Source of the DNA: Escherichia coli
GTDB lineage: Bacteria; Pseudomonadota; Gammaproteobacteria; Enterobacterales; Enterobacteriaceae
DNA: 64,000 nt
Assembly: GCF_965641715.1 (NCBI RefSeq)
Contig: NZ_OZ282453.1
Direction: 5' to 3' (one strand)
This document shows, piece by piece, positions 11,086-58,961 of this stretch. How positions within the stretch are numbered: position 1 is the stretch's first letter; each line of letters starts with the position of its first letter. The notes below the pieces were generated by a model. It had not been told where the DNA came from. It did no database searches and saw only the letters and a list, made by a program, of their open reading frames with translations. The translations under genes and the position numbers were made by a program.

Positions 11086-13752
11086 ATGGAACCTTTTAAA
11101 TATATATGCCATTACTGGGGAAAATCCTCAAAAAGCCTGACGAAAGGAAATGATATTCATCTGTTAATTTATCATTGCCTTGATGTTGCTGCTGTTGCAG
11201 ATTGCTGGTGGGATCAATCAGTCGTACTGCAAAATACTTTTTGCCGAAATGAAATGCTATCAAAACAGAGGGTGAAGGCCTGGCTGTTATTTTTCATTGC
11301 TCTTCATGATATTGGAAAGTTTGATATACGATTCCAATATAAATCAGCAGAAAGTTGGCTGAAATTAAATCCTGCAACGCCATCACTTAATGGTCCATCA
11401 ACACAAATGTGCCGTAAATTTAATCATGGTGCAGCCGGTCTGTATTGGTTTAACCAGGATTCACTTTCAGAGCAATCTCCCGGGGATTTTTTCAGTTTTT
11501 TTGATGCCGCTCCTCATCCTTATGAGTCCTGGTTTCCATGGGTAGAGGCCGTTACAGGACATCATGGTTTTATATTACATTCCCAGGATCAAGATAAGTC
11601 GCGTTGGGAAATGCCAGCTTCTCTGGCATCTTATGCTGCGCAAGATAAACAGGCTCGTGAGGAGTGGATATCTGTACTCGAAGCATTATTTTTAACGCCA
11701 GCCGGGTTATCTATAAACGATATACCACCTGATTGTTCATCACTGTTAGCAGGTTTTTGCTCGCTTGCTGACTGGTTAGGTTCCTGGACCACAACGGATA
11801 CCTTTCTTTTCAAAGAAGATGCACCTTCAGGAATACAAGCGCTAAGAACATATTTTCAGGATAGACAGCAGGATGCGTGTCGGGTACTGGCGCTGAGTGG
11901 CCTTGTATCAAATAAGCGTCGTTATGACGGTGTACATGCCTTACTGGACAATGGCTATCAACCAAGACAATTACAGGTGTTGGTCGATGCTCTTCCTACA
12001 GCTCCCGGGCTGACGGTGATTGAGGCACCTACGGGATCAGGTAAAACCGAAACAGCGCTGGCCTATGCCTGGAAACTTATTGACCAACAACTTGCGGAGA
12101 GTGTTATTTTTGCCCTCCCTACACAAGCTACTGCAAATGCAATGCTCAGCAGAATGGAAGCGAACGCGAGCCGTTTATTTACCTCCCCAAATCTTATTCT
12201 TGCTCATGGTAATTCACGTTTTAACCACCTTTTTCAATCAATAAAATCACGCGCATTTACTGAGCAGGGGCAAGAAGAAGCGTGGGTTCAGTGTTGTCAG
12301 TGGTTGTCACAAAGCAATAAGAAAGTGTTTCTTGGGCAAATCGGCGTTTGCACTATTGATCAGGTGTTGATATCGGTATTGCCAGTTAAACACCGCTTTA
12401 TCCGTGGTTTGGGAATTGGTCGAAGTGTTTTAATTGTTGATGAAGTTCATGCTTACGACACCTATATGAACGGCTTGCTGGAGGCAGTGCTCAAGGCTCA
12501 GGCTGATGTGGGAGGGAGTGTTATTCTTCTTTCCGCAACCCTACCAATGAAACAAAAACAGAAACTTCTGGATACTTATGGTCTGCATACAGATCCAGTG
12601 GAAAATAACTCCGCATATCCACTTATTAACTGGCGAGGTGTGAATGGTGCGCAACGTTTTGATCTGCCAGCTCATCCAGAACAACTCCCGCCCCGCTTTT
12701 CGATTCAGCCAGAACCTATTTATTTAGCTGACATGTTACCTGACCTTACGATGTTAGAGCGAATGATCGCAGCGGCAAACGCGGGTGCACAAGTCTGCCT
12801 CATTTGCAATTTGGTTGACGTTGCACAACTATGCTTCCAACGGCTAAAGGAACTAAATGACACGCAAGTAGATATAGATTTGTTTCATGCGCGCTTTACG
12901 CTGAACGATCGTCGTGAAAAAGAGAATCGTGTCATTAGCAATTTCGGAAAAAATGGGGAGCGAAATGTTGGACGAATACTTGTCGCCACCCAGGTCGTGG
13001 AACAATCACTCGATGTAGATTTTGATTGGTTAATTACCCAGCATTGTCCCGCTGATTTGCTTTTCCAACGATTAGGCCGTTTACATCGCCATCATCGTAA
13101 ATATCGTCCCGCCGGTTTTGAGATTCCTCTGGCAACCGTTTTGCTGCCTGATGGCGAAGGTTACGGACGACATGAGCATATTTATAGCAACGTTAGAGTC
13201 ATGTGGCGGACGCAGCAACATATTGAGGAACTTAATGGAGCATCCTTATTTTTCCCTGATGCCTACCGGCAATGGCTGGATAGCATTTACGATGATGCTG
13301 AAATGGATGAGCCAGAATGGGTCATCAAAGGCATGGATAAGTTTGAAAGCGCTGAGTGTGAAAAGAGGTTCAAGGCTCGCAAGGTTCTGCAGTGGGCTGA
13401 AGAATATAGTTTGCAGGATAACGATGAAACCATTCTTGCGGTAACGAGGGATGGGGAAATGAGCCTGCCATTATTGCCTTATGTACAAACGTCTTCAGGT
13501 AAACAACTGCTCGATGGCCAGGTCTACGAGGACCTAAGTCATGAACAGCAGTATGAGGCTTTAGCACTTAATCGCGTCAATGTGCCATTTACCTGGAAAC
13601 GTAGTTTTTCTGAAGTAGTCGATGAAGATGGGTTACTTTGGCTGGAAGGAAGGCAGAATCAGGATGGATGGATCTGGCAGGGTAACAGTATTGTTATTAC
13701 CTACACTCGGGATGAAGGGATGACCAGAGTCATCCCTGCAAATCCCAAATAA
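11086..13752 (+). CDS. cas3: Cas3 nuclease/helicase, type I-E (888 aa)
   Basis: 888 aa; N-terminal HD domain (LLIYHCLDVAAV...HDIGKF), helicase Walker A GSGKTE and DEVH box; RBS AGGGAGG before ATG at 11086. Confidence 0.97.
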   Translation: MEPFKYICHYWGKSSKSLTKGNDIHLLIYHCLDVAAVADCWWDQSVVLQNTFCRNEMLSKQRVKAWLLFFIALHDIGKFDIRFQYKSAESWLKLNPATPSLNGPSTQMCRKFNHGAAGLYWFNQDSLSEQSPGDFFSFFDAAPHPYESWFPWVEAVTGHHGFILHSQDQDKSRWEMPASLASYAAQDKQAREEWISVLEALFLTPAGLSINDIPPDCSSLLAGFCSLADWLGSWTTTDTFLFKEDAPSGIQALRTYFQDRQQDACRVLALSGLVSNKRRYDGVHALLDNGYQPRQLQVLVDALPTAPGLTVIEAPTGSGKTETALAYAWKLIDQQLAESVIFALPTQATANAMLSRMEANASRLFTSPNLILAHGNSRFNHLFQSIKSRAFTEQGQEEAWVQCCQWLSQSNKKVFLGQIGVCTIDQVLISVLPVKHRFIRGLGIGRSVLIVDEVHAYDTYMNGLLEAVLKAQADVGGSVILLSATLPMKQKQKLLDTYGLHTDPVENNSAYPLINWRGVNGAQRFDLPAHPEQLPPRFSIQPEPIYLADMLPDLTMLERMIAAANAGAQVCLICNLVDVAQLCFQRLKELNDTQVDIDLFHARFTLNDRREKENRVISNFGKNGERNVGRILVATQVVEQSLDVDFDWLITQHCPADLLFQRLGRLHRHHRKYRPAGFEIPLATVLLPDGEGYGRHEHIYSNVRVMWRTQQHIEELNGASLFFPDAYRQWLDSIYDDAEMDEPEWVIKGMDKFESAECEKRFKARKVLQWAEEYSLQDNDETILAVTRDGEMSLPLLPYVQTSSGKQLLDGQVYEDLSHEQQYEALALNRVNVPFTWKRSFSEVVDEDGLLWLEGRQNQDGWIWQGNSIVITYTRDEGMTRVIPANPK

Positions 13753-39008: not shown

Positions 39009-41087
39009 TTAAATCAATGCCGATTTATCAATTCCCAGCCGCTTCATCCGTGACAGCAGGGTCGTGCGTTTCAGCCCCAGACGTTGCGCAGCGCCTTTAG
39101 GCCCGGCAACCACGCCGTTAGTTTCTTTCAGCACGCGAACAATCAACTGATATTCATCTTCGCCCTCCTGAGCGACAACCGTTGCGGCAGGCGGCGTTTC
39201 AGGCTCCGGTAAAGCAATATCTGGCAATGACAGCTGCAGCACGTTGCCGCGTGTTAGCAATACCGCGCGCTCAATGACGTTTTCCAGTTCGCGTACGTTA
39301 CCCGGCCACTCCATATTGCTCAAGGTGCGCAACGTCTCGGCAGGAATGCTGTCGATATTGCGCCCCAGACGACGGGCAATTTTGAAGGTAAAGGCTTTCG
39401 CCAGCAGCGGAATATCTTCTGGACGCTCGCGTAGTGGCGGAAGGTGAATCGGGAATACGTTCAGGCGGTAATAGAGATCGCTACGGAACTCACGGTCGGC
39501 GACCATTTTTTTCAGATCGCGGTTAGTCGCGGCGATTAGACGCACGTCCGTCTGAATGATTTTGTTGCTGCCGAGGCGTTCAAACTCCTGTTCCTGCAAT
39601 ACACGCAGCAACTTCGGCTGTAACTCCAGTGGCATATCGCCCACTTCGTCGAGGAACAGGGAGCTTTTATCCGCCAGTTCAAAACGACCGATACGCTGGG
39701 CGCTGGCACCGGTAAAAGCCCCACGCTCATGACCAAACAGATCGCTCTCCAGCAATCCGGCAGGCATCGCCGCGCAGTTCATTTTGACCATGCGGCGATT
39801 ATTACGCCCACTGAGATTATGGATAGCACGGGCAATCAGCTCTTTACCCGTGCCAGTTTCACCGAGGATCAGCACGGTACTGTCACTTTGCGCCACCATT
39901 TCAACTTGTTTAAGCACGCTGTACATGGCTTCGCTGCGGCCAATAATCTCGCCAAATTCACTATCAACATTGTTGAGCTGCTCGGTCAGGGCGAGGTTTT
40001 CATCAACCAGCCGTTCTTTCAGACGATGGATTTCCTGATAGGCGAGGGCGTTATCGACAGCGATTGCCACACGTTCGGCAATCTGGCGCAGTAAATTCAG
40101 ATTGGTAGTGGTAAACACTTTCTCTTCACATTGCGCCAGTTTCAGCACGCCCAGCATGGTGTCGCCAGACATCAGCGGTAACAGGCACAAAGTTTGAATC
40201 TGGTTGCCCCAGGTATCGAACAACATGCGTTCATAGGGGGCTAAATCATCCCGCTCGTGGAGATTAATCAGCAGCATCTCTTTACTTTTGAACACGCGTT
40301 CGGTGAGGGTTCCGGCTTCATCGACTTCGCTCTGTTCGTGGGCGGGATGCTGTTTATCAAGATAGTGAGTGGAGTAGATGTTGAGTTTGTTTTTACGGTG
40401 GCTGCGTAAGACGATACTGATATCGTCAATATCGAAATAGTAATGGATTTCTTTGGCGACTTCGCTGACCAGTTCGTCCATATCCAGGCGGGAAAGCACC
40501 GCGTTGGTGATGGCGACCAGGATGCGGAAGTTATCGCGTTCCCGGCATAACAACTCATAGTCGACATTGTTAACGACGCGACTCTGGATTTGTTCGGTGA
40601 CGACAGAAACGATCTGCGTAAATGTTTGCAGACGATTGAACTCTTTTTCGCTCCAGGGGCGATCGTCATAACGAATAAATTCACAGCCACCAAAAATATG
40701 CCCTTCCGCCGCCAGTGGCATCAGGCAATAGTGACCAAATTTTGGGTATAGCCCACCTGCGGCCAGCTGCGGCCAGGTTTCACAAAATTCTTCGTAACTG
40801 CAATGCAGCGTATCAGGGCGCGACAAAATGCTGCGTACCGGACCGTGTGCCAGAACAGTTTCGTCTTCATATTTAATGGGGGTGTCTTTTTCACGCGATG
40901 CGTAATAAGACGCACGTTGAGTCTGCGCTTGCCACAACACAATAGCCGCGTTGTCGGCGAGCGCAGAACGCTTTACCAGTTGCGAAAGAGCCTCACACAG
41001 CGAGGCCAGATCGGGCTGCTGCAATAGTGTCCGAGTGATGTCGAACAACCCTTGCTGTCCGAGATCACTCATCGGTGTATATGACAT
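39009..41087 (-). CDS. fhlA: Formate hydrogenlyase transcriptional activator FhlA (sigma-54 dependent, 692 aa)
   Basis: ORF 39009..41123; likely start giving MSYTPMSDLGQQGLFDITRTLLQQ; AAA+ sigma-54 activator motifs GETGTGKE and GAFTGA; C-terminal HTH. Confidence 0.95.
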   Translation of the reverse strand: MSYTPMSDLGQQGLFDITRTLLQQPDLASLCEALSQLVKRSALADNAAIVLWQAQTQRASYYASREKDTPIKYEDETVLAHGPVRSILSRPDTLHCSYEEFCETWPQLAAGGLYPKFGHYCLMPLAAEGHIFGGCEFIRYDDRPWSEKEFNRLQTFTQIVSVVTEQIQSRVVNNVDYELLCRERDNFRILVAITNAVLSRLDMDELVSEVAKEIHYYFDIDDISIVLRSHRKNKLNIYSTHYLDKQHPAHEQSEVDEAGTLTERVFKSKEMLLINLHERDDLAPYERMLFDTWGNQIQTLCLLPLMSGDTMLGVLKLAQCEEKVFTTTNLNLLRQIAERVAIAVDNALAYQEIHRLKERLVDENLALTEQLNNVDSEFGEIIGRSEAMYSVLKQVEMVAQSDSTVLILGETGTGKELIARAIHNLSGRNNRRMVKMNCAAMPAGLLESDLFGHERGAFTGASAQRIGRFELADKSSLFLDEVGDMPLELQPKLLRVLQEQEFERLGSNKIIQTDVRLIAATNRDLKKMVADREFRSDLYYRLNVFPIHLPPLRERPEDIPLLAKAFTFKIARRLGRNIDSIPAETLRTLSNMEWPGNVRELENVIERAVLLTRGNVLQLSLPDIALPEPETPPAATVVAQEGEDEYQLIVRVLKETNGVVAGPKGAAQRLGLKRTTLLSRMKRLGIDKSALI

Positions 41088-43561: not shown

Positions 43562-44424
43562 CGCTGTGTCTCCAGCCAGTTCAGCCACTGGTCCATCCCT
43601 TCGCCGCTGGTGGCGGAAATAAGGATGATTTCAATTTCTGGATTGACTTCGCGGGCGCAGGCGATGCACTTCTCAACGTCAAAGTTGAGATACGGCAACA
43701 GGTCAACTTTGTTGAGCAGCATCAGCGAGGCGGCGGCAAACATATGCGGATATTTCAGCGGTTTGTCTTCACCTTCGGTAACGGAAAGCACCGCCACTTT
43801 GTGTTTTTCACCGAGATCGAAGCTGGCCGGGCATACGAGGTTGCCAACGTTTTCGATAAACAGAATACCGTTATCGTCCAGTGGCAGACGCGGTGCGGCG
43901 TCGGCAATCATCTGTGCGTCAAGATGGCAGCCTTTACCGGTGTTCACCTGAATCGCTGGTGTGCCGGTAGCGCGAATGCGTGCGGCATCGTTCACGGTTT
44001 GCTGGTCACCTTCAATAACCGCGCACGGAACGCTGTCTTTCAGGCGCATTAAGGTTTCCGTCAGCAGGGTGGTTTTACCGGAACCAGGGCTGGAAACCAG
44101 GTTGAGCACCAGTTGCTTGCGGGCAGCAAAGCGCGCGCGGTTGCGTTCAGCCAGACGGTTGTTTTTGTCCAGCACGTCAATTTCGACTTCCAGCATCCGG
44201 CGCTGGCTCATGCCCGGCGCGTGAGTGCCCGCTTCGCCATGACCGTAATGCAGGTCGCCTTCTTCAGTCTGGCTGGGGGTAAATTCAGGCGTTTTAATGC
44301 CGGTGATTTTCATCTTCGGGCGTGCCGCCGGGGCAAATGGCGCGCTACGAAACGCGGAATGAGGGTTATGTTCATCACCCTCGATATACAGGTTGCCTTC
44401 ACCGCAACCGCATGTTGTACACAT
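43552..44424 (-). CDS. hypB: Hydrogenase nickel incorporation GTPase HypB (290 aa)
   Basis: 290 aa, N-terminus [10 protein letters not shown]; His-rich region; GTPase motif GSGKTT. Confidence 0.95.
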
Positions 44425-44427
44425 CGC

Positions 44428-44778
44428 TCACTCCTGGTCTATTTCTATCCGCCGAATCTGTAAACCGTCGTCTGCCACAATCTGTAGCATGTCACCATGA
44501 CACTGTGGACAGCGGCGGACGCGCTGGGTCAGTAGCGTCACATACTGTTGGCATGTTTCACACCAGCATTCGGCCTCTTGTTCTTCGAGGTGCAGTTTAC
44601 AACCTTCCGCCACGCTGCCGCGGCAAACCAGATCAAAACAAAAGGCAAGAGAGCTGGTTTCGACACAAGAAAATGCGCCAATTTTGAGCCAGACCCCAGT
44701 TACGCGTTTTGCGCCGTGTTTTGCGGCCTGCTGTTCGATCAATTCCAGTGCCCGTTGGCAGAGGGTTATTTCGTGCAT
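44428..44778 (-). CDS. hypA: Hydrogenase nickel insertion protein HypA (116 aa)
   Basis: Start giving MHEITLCQRALELIEQ; zinc motif CxxC...CxxC. Confidence 0.93.
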   Translation of the reverse strand: MHEITLCQRALELIEQQAAKHGAKRVTGVWLKIGAFSCVETSSLAFCFDLVCRGSVAEGCKLHLEEQEAECWCETCQQYVTLLTQRVRRCPQCHGDMLQIVADDGLQIRRIEIDQE

Positions 44779-44809
44779 ATCGCCTCCCATTAACTATGGC
44801 CAGCTACAA

Positions 44810-44825
44810 GCAATAATTGTGCCAG
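44810..44825 (-). promoter_or_regulatory. sigma-54 (-24/-12) promoter for hyp operon
   Basis: Minus strand reads CTGGCACAATTATTGC (TGGCAC-N5-TTGC), about 30 bp upstream of hypA start. Confidence 0.7.
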
Positions 44826-44850
44826 TATTGATTATCCCTGCGGTGAATAA

Positions 44851-44890
44851 TGTCGATGATGTCGAAATGACACGTCGACACGGCGACGAA
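44851..44890. promoter_or_regulatory. Candidate FhlA upstream activating sequence in hyp/hyc intergenic region
   Basis: tgtcgatgatgtcgaaatgacacgtcgacacggcgacg with repeated TGTCGA / GTCGACA half-sites; related copies at 45502..45557 and 58817..58854. Confidence 0.5.
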
Positions 44891-44936
44891 ATTCATCTTT
44901 AGCTTAAAAATCGTTTTAATAACAATGAATTAAAAG

Positions 44937-44952
44937 TTGGCACAGAAAATGC
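44937..44952 (+). promoter_or_regulatory. sigma-54 (-24/-12) promoter for hyc operon
   Basis: TTGGCACAGAAAATGC (TGGCAC-N7-TGC with GG and GC spaced 10 nt), about 38 bp upstream of hycA ATG. Confidence 0.7.
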
Positions 44953-44989
44953 TTAAAGCTGGCATCTCTGTTAAACGGGTAACCTGACA

Positions 44990-45451
44990 ATGACTATTTG
45001 GGAAATAAGCGAGAAAGCCGATTACATCGCACAGCGGCATCGTCGCCTACAGGACCAGTGGCACATCTACTGCAATTCGCTGGTTCAGGGGATCACGTTA
45101 TCGAAAGCGCGCCTGCATCACGCCATGAGCTGCGCGCCGGACAAAGAACTCTGTTTCGTCCTTTTTGAACATTTTCGTATTTACGTCACCCTGGCGGATG
45201 GCTTTAACAGCCACACCATCGAGTATTACGTCGAAACAAAAGATGGCGAAGACAAACAGCGGATTGCGCAGGCACAACTGAGCATTGACGGCATGATTGA
45301 TGGCAAGGTCAACATCCGCGATCGCGAACAGGTTCTGGAACACTATCTCGAAAAAATCGCTGGCGTTTACGACAGCTTATACACCGCCATTGAAAACAAT
45401 GTGCCGGTGAATTTAAGCCAACTGGTAAAGGGACAAAGCCCGGCAGCATGA
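44990..45451 (+). CDS. hycA: Formate hydrogenlyase regulatory protein HycA (153 aa)
   Basis: 153 aa, N-terminus MTIWEISEKADYIAQRHRRLQDQW. Confidence 0.93.
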   Translation: MTIWEISEKADYIAQRHRRLQDQWHIYCNSLVQGITLSKARLHHAMSCAPDKELCFVLFEHFRIYVTLADGFNSHTIEYYVETKDGEDKQRIAQAQLSIDGMIDGKVNIRDREQVLEHYLEKIAGVYDSLYTAIENNVPVNLSQLVKGQSPAA

Positions 45452-45501: not shown

Positions 45502-45557
45502 TGTCGATGAGTGTCGAAAATGACATTTCATCGGCATGTTTTCGTCAAAAATGACAA
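45502..45557. promoter_or_regulatory. Candidate FhlA upstream activating sequence in hycA-hycB intergenic region
   Basis: tgtcgatgagtgtcgaaaatgacatttcatcggcatgttttcgtcaaaaatgaca; first 25 bp nearly identical to the element at 44851. Confidence 0.5.
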
Positions 45558-46187: not shown

Positions 46188-48010
46188 GCGCAATTTCCCT
46201 GATCAATAGCGGCGTGGCGTGGTTTGTCGCCGCCGCTGTTCTGGCATTTCTCTTTTCTTTTCAAAAGGCGCTAAGCGGCTGGATAGCCGGAATTGGCGGC
46301 GCGGTTGGTAGTCTGTATACGGCAGCCGCGGGCTTCACTGTACTGACTGGCGCGGTTGGCGTGAGCGGTGCGCTGTCGCTGGTAAGCTACGATGTGCAAA
46401 TCTCTCCGCTTAACGCGATTTGGCTGATTACGCTCGGTCTGTGCGGTCTGTTTGTCAGCCTCTACAACATTGACTGGCATCGCCACGCGCAGGTGAAGTG
46501 CAACGGCTTGCAGATCAATATGTTGATGGCTGCCGCCGTCTGCGCCGTCATTGCCAGCAACCTCGGCATGTTCGTGGTAATGGCCGAAGTCATGGCCTTG
46601 TGTGCGGTGTTCCTCACCAGCAACAGCAAAGAGGGCAAACTGTGGTTTGCGCTGGGGCGTCTTGGCACTCTGCTGCTGGTGATTGCTTGCTGGCTGCTGT
46701 GGCAGCGTTATGGCACGCTGGATCTGCGCCTGCTGGATATGCGTATGCAACAGCTGCCGCTCGGTTCCGATATCTGGCTGCTCGGTGTGATTGGCTTTGG
46801 CCTGCTGGCCGGGATTATTCCGCTGCACGGCTGGGTGCCGCAGGCACATGCTAACGCCTCTGCGCCAGCTGCCGCGTTGTTTTCTACGGTAGTCATGAAA
46901 ATTGGCCTGCTGGGCATTTTAACCCTGTCACTGCTGGGCGGTAATGCACCGCTGTGGTGGGGGATCGCGCTGCTGGTGCTCGGCATGATCACCGCGTTTG
47001 TCGGTGGTCTGTATGCGCTGATGGAGCACAACATCCAGCGCCTGCTGGCTTACCACACCCTGGAAAATATCGGCATTATCCTGCTGGGGCTGGGCGCTGG
47101 CGTAACGGGTATCGCGCTCGAACAACCGGCGCTGATTGCTCTTGGCCTGGTCGGTGGTCTGTACCATCTGCTTAACCATAGCCTGTTCAAAAGCGTACTG
47201 TTCCTCGGGGCGGGGAGCGTCTGGTTCCGTACCGGTCATCGCGATATCGAAAAACTCGGTGGTATTGGCAAGAAAATGCCGGTTATCTCCATCGCTATGT
47301 TAGTCGGGCTGATGGCAATGGCTGCACTGCCGCCGCTGAACGGTTTTGCCGGGGAATGGGTTATCTATCAATCCTTCTTCAAACTGAGCAATAGTGGCGC
47401 GTTTGTTGCACGTCTGCTGGGGCCGCTGCTCGCTGTGGGGCTGGCAATTACCGGTGCGCTGGCGGTTATGTGTATGGCGAAAGTCTATGGCGTCACGTTC
47501 CTCGGCGCGCCGCGTACCAAAGAAGCCGAAAACGCCACCTGTGCGCCGCTCCTGATGAGCGTAAGCGTAGTGGCACTGGCGATTTGCTGCGTAATTGGCG
47601 GTGTTGCTGCGCCGTGGCTGCTGCCGATGCTGTCTGCTGCTGTACCTCTGCCGCTGGAGCCTGCTAACACCACCGTTTCTCAACCGATGATCACGTTGCT
47701 GCTGATTGCCTGCCCGCTGCTGCCATTCATCATTATGGCGATTTGCAAAGGCGATCGTTTGCCATCGCGTTCCCGCGGCGCGGCCTGGGTGTGCGGCTAC
47801 GACCACGAAAAATCAATGGTGATTACCGCTCACGGTTTTGCCATGCCGGTGAAACAGGCGTTTGCGCCGGTGCTGAAACTGCGCAAATGGCTGAATCCGG
47901 TGTCGCTGGTGCCGGGCTGGCAGTGCGAGGGGAGTGCGTTGCTGTTCCGCCGGATGGCGCTGGTTGAACTGGCGGTACTGGTGGTGATTATTGTTTCACG
48001 AGGAGCCTGA
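46184..48010 (+). CDS. hycC: Formate hydrogenlyase subunit 3, membrane antiporter-like (608 aa)
   Basis: 608 aa polytopic membrane protein; overlaps hycB stop. Confidence 0.95.
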   Translation: MSAISLINSGVAWFVAAAVLAFLFSFQKALSGWIAGIGGAVGSLYTAAAGFTVLTGAVGVSGALSLVSYDVQISPLNAIWLITLGLCGLFVSLYNIDWHRHAQVKCNGLQINMLMAAAVCAVIASNLGMFVVMAEVMALCAVFLTSNSKEGKLWFALGRLGTLLLVIACWLLWQRYGTLDLRLLDMRMQQLPLGSDIWLLGVIGFGLLAGIIPLHGWVPQAHANASAPAAALFSTVVMKIGLLGILTLSLLGGNAPLWWGIALLVLGMITAFVGGLYALMEHNIQRLLAYHTLENIGIILLGLGAGVTGIALEQPALIALGLVGGLYHLLNHSLFKSVLFLGAGSVWFRTGHRDIEKLGGIGKKMPVISIAMLVGLMAMAALPPLNGFAGEWVIYQSFFKLSNSGAFVARLLGPLLAVGLAITGALAVMCMAKVYGVTFLGAPRTKEAENATCAPLLMSVSVVALAICCVIGGVAAPWLLPMLSAAVPLPLEPANTTVSQPMITLLLIACPLLPFIIMAICKGDRLPSRSRGAAWVCGYDHEKSMVITAHGFAMPVKQAFAPVLKLRKWLNPVSLVPGWQCEGSALLFRRMALVELAVLVVIIVSRGA

Positions 48011-57802: not shown

Positions 57803-58813
57803 ATGACGACGATGCTGGAAGTGGCGAAGCGCGCCGGGGTTTCAAAAGCGACCGTTTCCCGCGTGCTTTCAGGTAATGGCTACGTCAGCCAGGAGACTAA
57901 AGATCGCGTGTTTCAGGCGGTAGAAGAGAGCGGTTACCGCCCAAATTTGCTGGCCCGCAATCTGTCGGCGAAAAGTACCCAGACGCTGGGGCTGGTAGTG
58001 ACTAACACGCTTTACCACGGCATTTATTTTAGTGAATTACTGTTTCATGCCGCGCGAATGGCGGAAGAGAAAGGGCGGCAGTTGCTATTGGCAGATGGTA
58101 AACACAGCGCCGAAGAAGAGCGCCAGGCGATTCAGTATCTGCTGGATTTGCGCTGCGACGCCATTATGATTTACCCGCGTTTTTTAAGTGTGGATGAGAT
58201 CGATGACATCATTGACGCGCACAGTCAGCCGATAATGGTGCTTAATCGCCGCCTGCGCAAAAATAGCAGCCATAGCGTCTGGTGCGATCATAAACAGACC
58301 AGCTTTAACGCCGTGGCAGAGTTGATAAACGCCGGGCATCAGGAGATTGCTTTCCTTACTGGCTCGATGGATTCCCCCACCAGCATTGAACGTCTTGCCG
58401 GGTATAAAGACGCGCTGGCGCAGCATGGTATTGCTCTCAATGAAAAACTTATCGCTAACGGTAAATGGACGCCCGCCAGCGGGGCCGAAGGTGTAGAAAT
58501 GTTGCTCGAACGTGGGGCTAAATTTAGCGCGTTAGTTGCCAGTAACGACGATATGGCGATAGGTGCGATGAAAGCGTTACACGAGCGCGGCGTAGCGGTG
58601 CCAGAGCAGGTGTCAGTTATCGGATTCGATGATATCGCAATTGCCCCCTACATCGTTCCGGCGCTCTCCAGCGTAAAAATTCCGGTGACTGAGATGATTC
58701 AGGAAATTATTGGACGGCTGATTTTTATGCTCGATGGCGGGGATTTCTCACCGCCGAAAACCTTCAGCGGAAAACTGATCCGCCGCGACTCACTCATTGC
58801 TCTTTCGCGATAA
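57803..58813 (+). CDS. ascG: LacI-family repressor of asc operon
   Basis: ORF 57737..58813; likely start near 57794-57803 giving MTTMLEVAKRAGVSKATVSRVLSG (HTH); periplasmic-binding-protein-like effector domain. Confidence 0.93.
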   Translation: MTTMLEVAKRAGVSKATVSRVLSGNGYVSQETKDRVFQAVEESGYRPNLLARNLSAKSTQTLGLVVTNTLYHGIYFSELLFHAARMAEEKGRQLLLADGKHSAEEERQAIQYLLDLRCDAIMIYPRFLSVDEIDDIIDAHSQPIMVLNRRLRKNSSHSVWCDHKQTSFNAVAELINAGHQEIAFLTGSMDSPTSIERLAGYKDALAQHGIALNEKLIANGKWTPASGAEGVEMLLERGAKFSALVASNDDMAIGAMKALHERGVAVPEQVSVIGFDDIAIAPYIVPALSSVKIPVTEMIQEIIGRLIFMLDGGDFSPPKTFSGKLIRRDSLIALSR

Positions 58814-58826
58814 ACATTGTCATCAC

Positions 58827-58860
58827 ATGTCATCGTCACTAGTGTCGATGACATCTTTTT
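58827..58860 (+). terminator. Inverted repeat followed by T-run after ascG: candidate terminator and/or FhlA-type site for hydN
   Basis: TGTCATCG-N10-CGATGACA followed by TCTTTTTT; contains TGTCGATGACA, which resembles the hyc/hyp UAS motif. Confidence 0.45.
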
Positions 58861-58961
58861 TCCTGCATTACAGAAATTAATTTCCTTAAATAACAGCAAA
58901 TTAAAAACTGGCATGATTTGTGAATGTATCGGCGCATTAACTGTCATTGCTGGAGAATTTG

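Follow-up and report, generated by a model that had tools for sequence, protein, structure and literature searches.

Genes and limits of the hypA-hycA spacer

The window, a 64,000-nucleotide stretch of Escherichia coli DNA, carries the hyp and hyc genes in divergent orientation, and the short spacer between hypA and hycA raises the question of which promoters drive the two operons and which activator acts on them. By annotation transfer, the gene order is mutS, ygbA, fhlA and hypEDCBA (minus strand), followed by hycABCDEFGHI, asc, hydN-hypF and norWV. The locus is nearly universal in the species, with a match of at least 95% identity to a 1.1-kb query around the spacer in 5,425 of the 5,426 complete E. 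coli genomes. Three genes are central to the question:

39009 to 41087, minus strand: fhlA, sigma-54 enhancer-binding activator (NCBIfam equivalog NF011958, full length, 1548.6 bits against a cut-off of 830)
44428 to 44778, minus strand: hypA, first gene of hypABCDE-fhlA (RefSeq annotation transfer; NCBIfam HypA, 241.8 bits against a cut-off of 121)
44990 to 45451, plus strand: hycA, formate hydrogenlyase regulator and FhlA anti-activator (NCBIfam HycA equivalog, 301 bits against a cut-off of 180), first gene of hycABCDEFGHI by annotation transfer

The operons are given as hycABCDEFGHI and hypABCDE-fhlA (Shimada et al. 2021, PMC8743547). The gene order and the equivalog models place FHL and maturation genes downstream of the spacer and fhlA in the same locus, as membership in the formate regulon demands. 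An initial annotation of this DNA had fhlA located "next door" to the spacer; the gene does belong to the same hyp operon, as its final gene, but it lies 3.7 kb away. RefSeq and NCBIfam label the gene and its product "flhA" and "FlhA" (NZ_CP146250.1, 14610-16688), a name that is easily confused with that of the flagellar export gene flhA.

The spacer spans positions 44779-44989 and is 211 bp long, because hypA starts at 44778. This start is the one in the RefSeq annotation, agrees with a full-length NCBIfam HypA match, is shared by all 80 orthologues and has a conserved GGAGGC Shine-Dalgarno sequence directly upstream. The previously proposed length of 199 bp was too short by 12 bp, having been counted from the ATG of a longer open reading frame at 44790. 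No RNA family of Rfam matched between 38500 and 46500.

Two divergent sigma-54 promoters

Both −24/−12 motifs that had been proposed for the spacer are exactly where they were placed, CTGGCACAATTATTGC on the minus strand at 44825..44810, facing hypA, and TTGGCACAGAAAATGC on the plus strand at 44937..44952, facing hycA. In their full extent, the promoters are as follows:

44809 to 44825, minus strand: PhypA, sigma-54 promoter CTGGCACAATTATTGCT, with GG at 44823-44822 and GC at 44811-44810
44937 to 44953, plus strand: PhycA, sigma-54 promoter TTGGCACAGAAAATGCT, with GG at 44939-44940 and GC at 44951-44952

In both motifs, exactly 10 bases separate GG from GC (GG-N10-GC), as in the sigma-54 consensus TGGCAC-N5-TTGCW, and the −12 element of PhycA reads ATGC instead of TTGC. 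A start is predicted for PhypA at about 44798, with 20 nt of leader before the hypA ATG (44778), and for PhycA at about 44964, with 26 nt of leader before the hycA ATG (44990). The two predicted starts are about 166 bp apart.

A search of the whole window with the consensus TGGCAC-N5-TTGC and at most one mismatch yielded 8 matches against 7.25 expected, which is the chance level. Because a consensus search is thus uninformative, we used position weight matrices (PWMs) instead. One was built independently from 19 E. coli sigma-54 sites that Bonocora et al. 2015 (PMC4591121) list in their Table 1 and that lie outside the window; the other was the published matrix of Barrios 1999, derived from 186 promoters, in the form reproduced in PMC7658346. 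Across the roughly 128,000 positions scanned, the top score with the independent matrix is that of the hypA motif (19.9 bits), followed by that of the hycA motif (14.9 bits), and first-order Markov nulls give 0.02 and 1.18 sites per 64 kb at these respective scores. The Barrios matrix ranks them in the same order (18.8 and 15.4 bits), with null expectations of 0.05 and 0.89 per 64 kb. The RpoN matrix scan that had been suggested as a check therefore returns both motifs as the top two of the window under two matrices. A score like that of the hycA motif is expected about once per 64 kb and, therefore, is not significant window-wide by itself; given the correct strand within the 211-bp divergent spacer, the expectation falls to about 0.001.

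A 26-nt imperfect inverted repeat (77% complementary; 44799-44824 and 44938-44963) spans both promoters. Past the −12 elements it continues into AGCTGGC, close to the predicted start on each side, and this extension is unconserved outside Escherichia.

FhlA-type enhancers between the promoters and downstream of hycA

A cluster of TGTCGA and GTCGACA repeats had been noted between the two motifs, and it is present as described, with TGTCGA at 44851 and 44860 and GTCGACA at 44874-44880. A second array of this kind, absent from the initial annotation, lies beyond hycA:

44851 to 44892: UAS-1, FhlA-type enhancer, TGTCGAtgaTGTCGAAATGACAcGTCGACA plus the weaker GGCGACGAAATT, with the core at 44851-44880 and GGCGACGAAATT reaching 44892
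45502 to 45556: UAS-2, FhlA-type enhancer in the hycA-hycB spacer, TGTCGATGAGTGTCGAAAATGACA...TTTTCGTCAAAAATGACA

The arrays were scored with an FhlA matrix of 13 characterised sites, whose consensus is TGWC-RAWRAT-GWCA (PMC7658346). The maximum of the window, 16.65 bits, falls in UAS-2 at 45512-45525 (TGTCGAAAATGACA), the second-best score, 15.25 bits, falls in UAS-1 at 44851-44864 (TGTCGATGATGTCG), and UAS-2 contains a further site at 45543-45556 (CGTCAAAAATGACA) with a score of 12.4; about 2.3 sites of at least 12 bits are expected per 64 kb under the null. Both arrays thus carry sites of the FhlA type, in a comparison that is partly circular, as the 13-site matrix probably includes both. 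Because the matrix was probably built partly on UAS-1 and UAS-2, it is the conservation of the arrays in the other 80 species of our comparison that provides independent support.

The two enhancers are near-duplicates: aligned with positions 44851-44872 of UAS-1, positions 45502-45525 of UAS-2 agree at 22 of 22 bases once two single-base gaps are allowed. Local alignment of the pair scores 36, and the highest score among about 3,000 random comparisons is 29. Pairwise local alignment was chosen because a MAFFT alignment of three sequences, the two enhancers and the hydN upstream region, was uninformative.

Both arrays are within looping distance of the promoters. Relative to the predicted starts, the center of the UAS-1 core (44865.5) is at about −98 for hycA and about −67 for hypA. 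UAS-2, in the hycA-hycB spacer, follows the hycA start by about 565 bp and is about 731 bp upstream as seen from the hypA start. At about −67, UAS-1 is nearer to the hypA start than is usual for an enhancer, and any assignment of an enhancer to PhypA is tentative. The Boeck laboratory reportedly assigned the hyp enhancer, serving PhypA, to the position of UAS-2, and UAS-2 is probably this published enhancer. A phrase search of the searchable literature, outside which the primary Boeck-laboratory papers lie, found no mention of an enhancer between hycA and hycB.

Simpler descriptions of the FhlA site were less informative. With up to 3 mismatches allowed, the whole window contains no copy of the idealised FhlA palindrome CATTTCGTACGAAATG (Leonhartsberger 2000, as relayed in PMC4987338), and nothing beyond the half-site-like CGAAATG and CGAAATT was seen. 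Because this 16-mer is an idealised consensus, its absence does not argue against membership in the FhlA regulon. The pattern TGTCG-N(1-25)-CGACA occurs 3 times in the window against 1.56 expected, which is not significant. In the scan of TGTC-type pentamer density that pointed to UAS-2, UAS-1 ranked third with 5 per 45 bp, a density inside the null.

Conservation and spacing across Enterobacteriaceae

A scan of one genome per species retrieved 80 loci with HycA, which together with the window represent 81 species; Escherichia, Salmonella, Citrobacter, Enterobacter, Klebsiella, Raoultella, Kluyvera and Kosakonia are among the genera of the 80. In all 80 loci, hypA is divergent from hycA, and the spacer measures 188-223 bp. 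The aligned spacers are strongly diverged except for discrete conserved blocks. In order from hypA to hycA, the blocks comprise the ribosome-binding site of hypA, the −12 and −24 elements of PhypA, TGTCGA...GACA...GTCGAC, an A+T-rich stretch with AATCAAnnnnTTAAAA at its end, both elements of PhycA (−24 and −12) and a portion of the hycA leader. None of the 81 species departs from T-G-G-C-A and T-G-C on either strand, and the start codon follows the motif at a nearly constant distance, 34-37 nt in the case of hycA and mostly 28-31 nt in that of hypA. The UAS-1 block (44850-44882) is conserved across the 81 species. Likewise, the UAS-2 block, GTGTCGA...GTGTCGAAA...TTTCGTCAAAAATGAC, is kept in all 81, within a hycA-hycB spacer whose remainder measures 67-146 bp. 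Taken together, the comparison gives a clean 81-species phylogenetic footprint of both promoters, the two enhancers and an IHF-like site described below. The assignment of the repeat cluster to the FhlA regulon, made in the initial annotation, is thus borne out by the second-best match to the FhlA matrix and by a block conserved in Enterobacteriaceae.

We also compared distances in the 69 species in which all three landmarks could be placed unambiguously. The hypA TGGCA is either 43-45 or 54-56 bp from the UAS-1 core, and the core is 47, 58-61 or 69-70 bp from the hycA TGGCA, with no intermediates in either case. Among species, the two promoter motifs are 111-113, 99-100, 89 or 109 bp apart. 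The distances from UAS-1 to the promoters and between the promoters hence change in steps of about 10-12 bp, or about one helical turn. Such stepwise spacing would be expected if face-of-helix geometry matters, but the helical-phase signal is suggestive rather than proven, because probably just four or five independent indel events underlie it. One could extend this idea to a UAS-1 that is a phase-locked enhancer common to both promoters and cooperates with UAS-2 through an FhlA-bridged loop of about 660 bp enclosing hycA, an arrangement that we regard as rather unlikely. The literature searched contained no description of either the quantised spacing or the FhlA-bridged loop.

A putative IHF site next to the hycA promoter

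An A+T-rich tract separates UAS-1 from PhycA, and it is likewise absent from the initial annotation:

44900 to 44936, plus strand: A+T-rich tract with the IHF-like core TAACAATGAATTA at 44920-44932, one mismatch to WATCAR-N4-TTR

The core ends 5 nt upstream of the hycA TGGCA, and a match with at most one mismatch recurs at the same offset (4-6 nt) in 63 of the 81 species (exact in 32). The hypA side has no comparable IHF-like site, and the A+T content is 76% on the hycA side vs 52% on the hypA side. IHF may thus act at TAACAATGAATTA, as far as the sequence can tell. An IHF footprint between the enhancer and the hyc promoter was reportedly obtained by Hopper et al. 1994. IHF is counted among the activators of hyc and hyp (PMC2636881).

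With an enhancer located at about −100 and a putative IHF-type, A+T-rich bend site separating it from the promoter, the arrangement would resemble that of IHF-assisted sigma-54 promoters. Promoters of this class include nifH and glnHp2. The arrangement here differs from the class in that the predicted IHF core abuts the −24 element, only 5 nt away.

Relation to published promoters

The divergent promoter architecture is already known and has been described since 1990, when Lutz et al. published a paper whose title, as cited in PMC3844500 (ref 35), begins "Characterization of divergent NtrA-dependent promoters" (Mol Microbiol 4:13). Because the architecture has been published since then, our finding is an ordinary one, the re-discovery of a textbook element. 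In K-12, ChIP-seq detected sigma-54 peaks OS27 (hycA) and OS28 (hypA), both marked "C" for experimentally confirmed in EcoCyc (Bonocora et al. 2015, PMC4591121). The OS27 motif is TTGGCACAAAAAATGCT, with a fold above peak threshold (FAT) of 91 and a distance of 26, and the OS28 motif is CTGGCACAATTATTGCT, with an FAT of 201 and a distance of 20 (PMC4591121). The leaders of 26 and 20 nt predicted here are the same as those in Table 1 of that study, which also describes hypA as transcribed by RNAP-sigma-54 and activated by FhlA (PMC4591121). Genomic SELEX likewise placed a peak of the sigma-54 holoenzyme in the hycA/hypA spacer (Shimada et al. 2021, PMC8743547). In Salmonella, sigma-54 binding was seen by ChIP-chip, and sigma-54-dependent expression amounted to 26-fold for hyc and 5.6-fold for hyp (Samuels et al. 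2013, PMC3844500). The two sigma-54 promoters originally proposed for this spacer agree with all three data sets, the same motifs being bound in the K-12 ChIP-seq.

The K-12 locus has the same gene order, the same leader lengths and an identical hypA motif. The strain examined here is not K-12, however, and its 211-bp spacer differs by 6 changes, one an A-to-G within the hycA motif, at a position of its non-critical spacer, and the five others outside the core elements. Salmonella Typhimurium also has divergent TGGCAT...TGCTT motifs, and its orthologous spacer aligns in the same block order, but the spacer sequence has diverged and the sixth base of both −24 elements is changed from C to T. 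At the Salmonella enterica subsp. diarizonae locus, the spacer is 208 bp long vs 211 bp here.

Further relatives are the promoters of fdhF (in K-12) and hydN-hypF, where arrays of the TGTC/GACA and TTTCGTC types likewise precede a −24/−12 element by about 60-140 bp. The hydN promoter is the third FhlA-regulon promoter of the window:

58908 to 58924: hydN promoter CTGGCATGATTTGTGAA, with TGTCA/TGTCG/GACA arrays at 58814-58852 (region 58806-58924)

As at hycA, an AATAACA-N3-AATTAAAA module abuts the −24 element of hydN. However, fdhF and hydN-hypF have single promoters instead of a divergent pair, the arrangement and spacing of their half-sites are unlike those found here, and the −12 element of hydN lacks the GC (TGTGAA).

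Regulation of the divergent operons

Given these observations, we conclude that the spacer is almost certainly a regulatory region of the formate regulon, composed of divergent sigma-54 promoters and an FhlA enhancer. The motif positions, their statistical rank, conservation and spacing and the gene identities were obtained here; the sigma-54 occupancy (on orthologous or identical sequence), the rpoN and FhlA dependence and the role of formate as ligand are taken from the literature.

We propose that PhycA would drive hycABCDEFGHI rightwards and PhypA would drive hypABCDE-fhlA leftwards, with sigma-54 RNA polymerase sitting on both promoters as closed complexes, whose opening would need ATP hydrolysis by formate-activated FhlA. 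FhlA would occupy the TGTC/GACA half-site arrays, both UAS-1 between the promoters and its near-duplicate UAS-2 in the hycA-hycB spacer, and an IHF-type bend between UAS-1 and PhycA may carry the enhancer-bound FhlA to the polymerase. With fhlA as the last gene of the hyp transcript and the anti-activator gene hycA as the first of the hyc transcript, the arrangement would create positive and negative feedback loops. Self-regulation of FhlA via hypABCDE-fhlA has been described (PMC7658346), and HycA is known from the literature as a repressor of FhlA action.

Could the spacer instead be served by ordinary sigma-70 promoters, possibly assisted by FNR, with the −24/−12 look-alikes being incidental? 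The hyp genes do have an FNR-dependent internal promoter besides, and one weak sigma-70-like match (9 of 12 positions) is present on the plus strand at 44790-44817. Yet a single such match is what chance provides (1 found vs 1.1 expected), and no FNR box within 2 mismatches was found in 44300-44800; a terminator scan was also at the chance level. Moreover, the −24/−12 cores do not vary among the 81 species, in contrast to the drifting spacer around them, and ChIP data place sigma-54 on both motifs (PMC4591121, PMC3844500), which makes a sigma-70 origin of the two transcripts exceedingly improbable. It is also conceivable that sigma-54 occupies both sites while only one is productive, the other being poised, non-transcribing or insulating. 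In any one condition, the majority of sigma-54 sites are reported to be transcriptionally inactive (Bonocora et al., PMC4591121), and PhypA, with UAS-1 unusually near at about −67, would be a candidate. However, both operons are up-regulated in a sigma-54-dependent manner in Salmonella (26-fold and 5.6-fold; PMC3844500), hypA is published as transcribed by RNAP-sigma-54 and activated by FhlA (PMC4591121), and both motifs keep a fixed distance from their start codons in the 81 species. We therefore consider a single productive promoter to be very improbable.

The identity of the activator deserves the same scrutiny, since TGTC/GACA half-sites are common to the GlrR consensus (PMC4987338) and ModE is named as a secondary activator of hyc (PMC2636881). 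A regulator other than FhlA, such as ModE or a GlrR-like binder of TGTC-N10-GACA, might thus bind the TGTCGA/GTCGACA cluster. The spacer sequence, however, does not contain the TGTC-N10-GACA spacing, and the UAS-1 block fits the FhlA matrix. TGTC/GACA arrays are also found upstream of the FhlA-dependent hydN and fdhF promoters, the array between hycA and hycB is kept in 81 of 81 species, and fhlA sits in the same hyp operon. These observations make a different regulator highly unlikely and favor FhlA as the activator that acts on the cluster.

With divergent sigma-54 promoters under FhlA control, the region would be a switch for the production of hydrogen from formate in fermenting enterobacteria, and as such it is relevant to their physiology and to bio-hydrogen engineering. 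The analysis also illustrates that real sigma-54 promoters are recognisable from raw sequence. Its only addition to the known biology is the suggestive helical-phase constraint on enhancer spacing.

Other sigma-54-like motifs in the window

Several further motifs with high sigma-54 scores are located within coding sequences. Inside hycA, TGGCACATCTACTGCA (45059-45074, plus strand) ranks third in the window with 15.0 bits, has the same orientation as PhycA and scores nearly the same. We considered it as a selected promoter and rejected it. The motif arises from the conserved W-[H/R]-x-Y-C-N codons, its Cys codon is TGC in 76% of species vs 73% for the other Cys codons of hycA, and the codon bias at its Tyr (TAC) opposes the sigma-54 preference. 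Judged by this codon usage, the motif looks like a by-product of the coding sequence.

Inside an 888-aa open reading frame (11086-13752), whose size and position are those of cas3, CTGGCAACCGTTTTGCT (13129-13145, plus strand) scores 13.4-13.7 bits and ranks third to fifth. The text of Bonocora et al. 2015 contains no mention of it; a cas operon of Salmonella has been reported to be sigma-54-dependent (PMC3844500). Inside hycC, GTGGCGCGTTTGTTGCA (47394-47410, plus strand; 14.7 bits) is the counterpart of IS31, an intragenic ChIP-seq site in Bonocora et al. 2015 whose K-12 sequence ends in C where the window has A.
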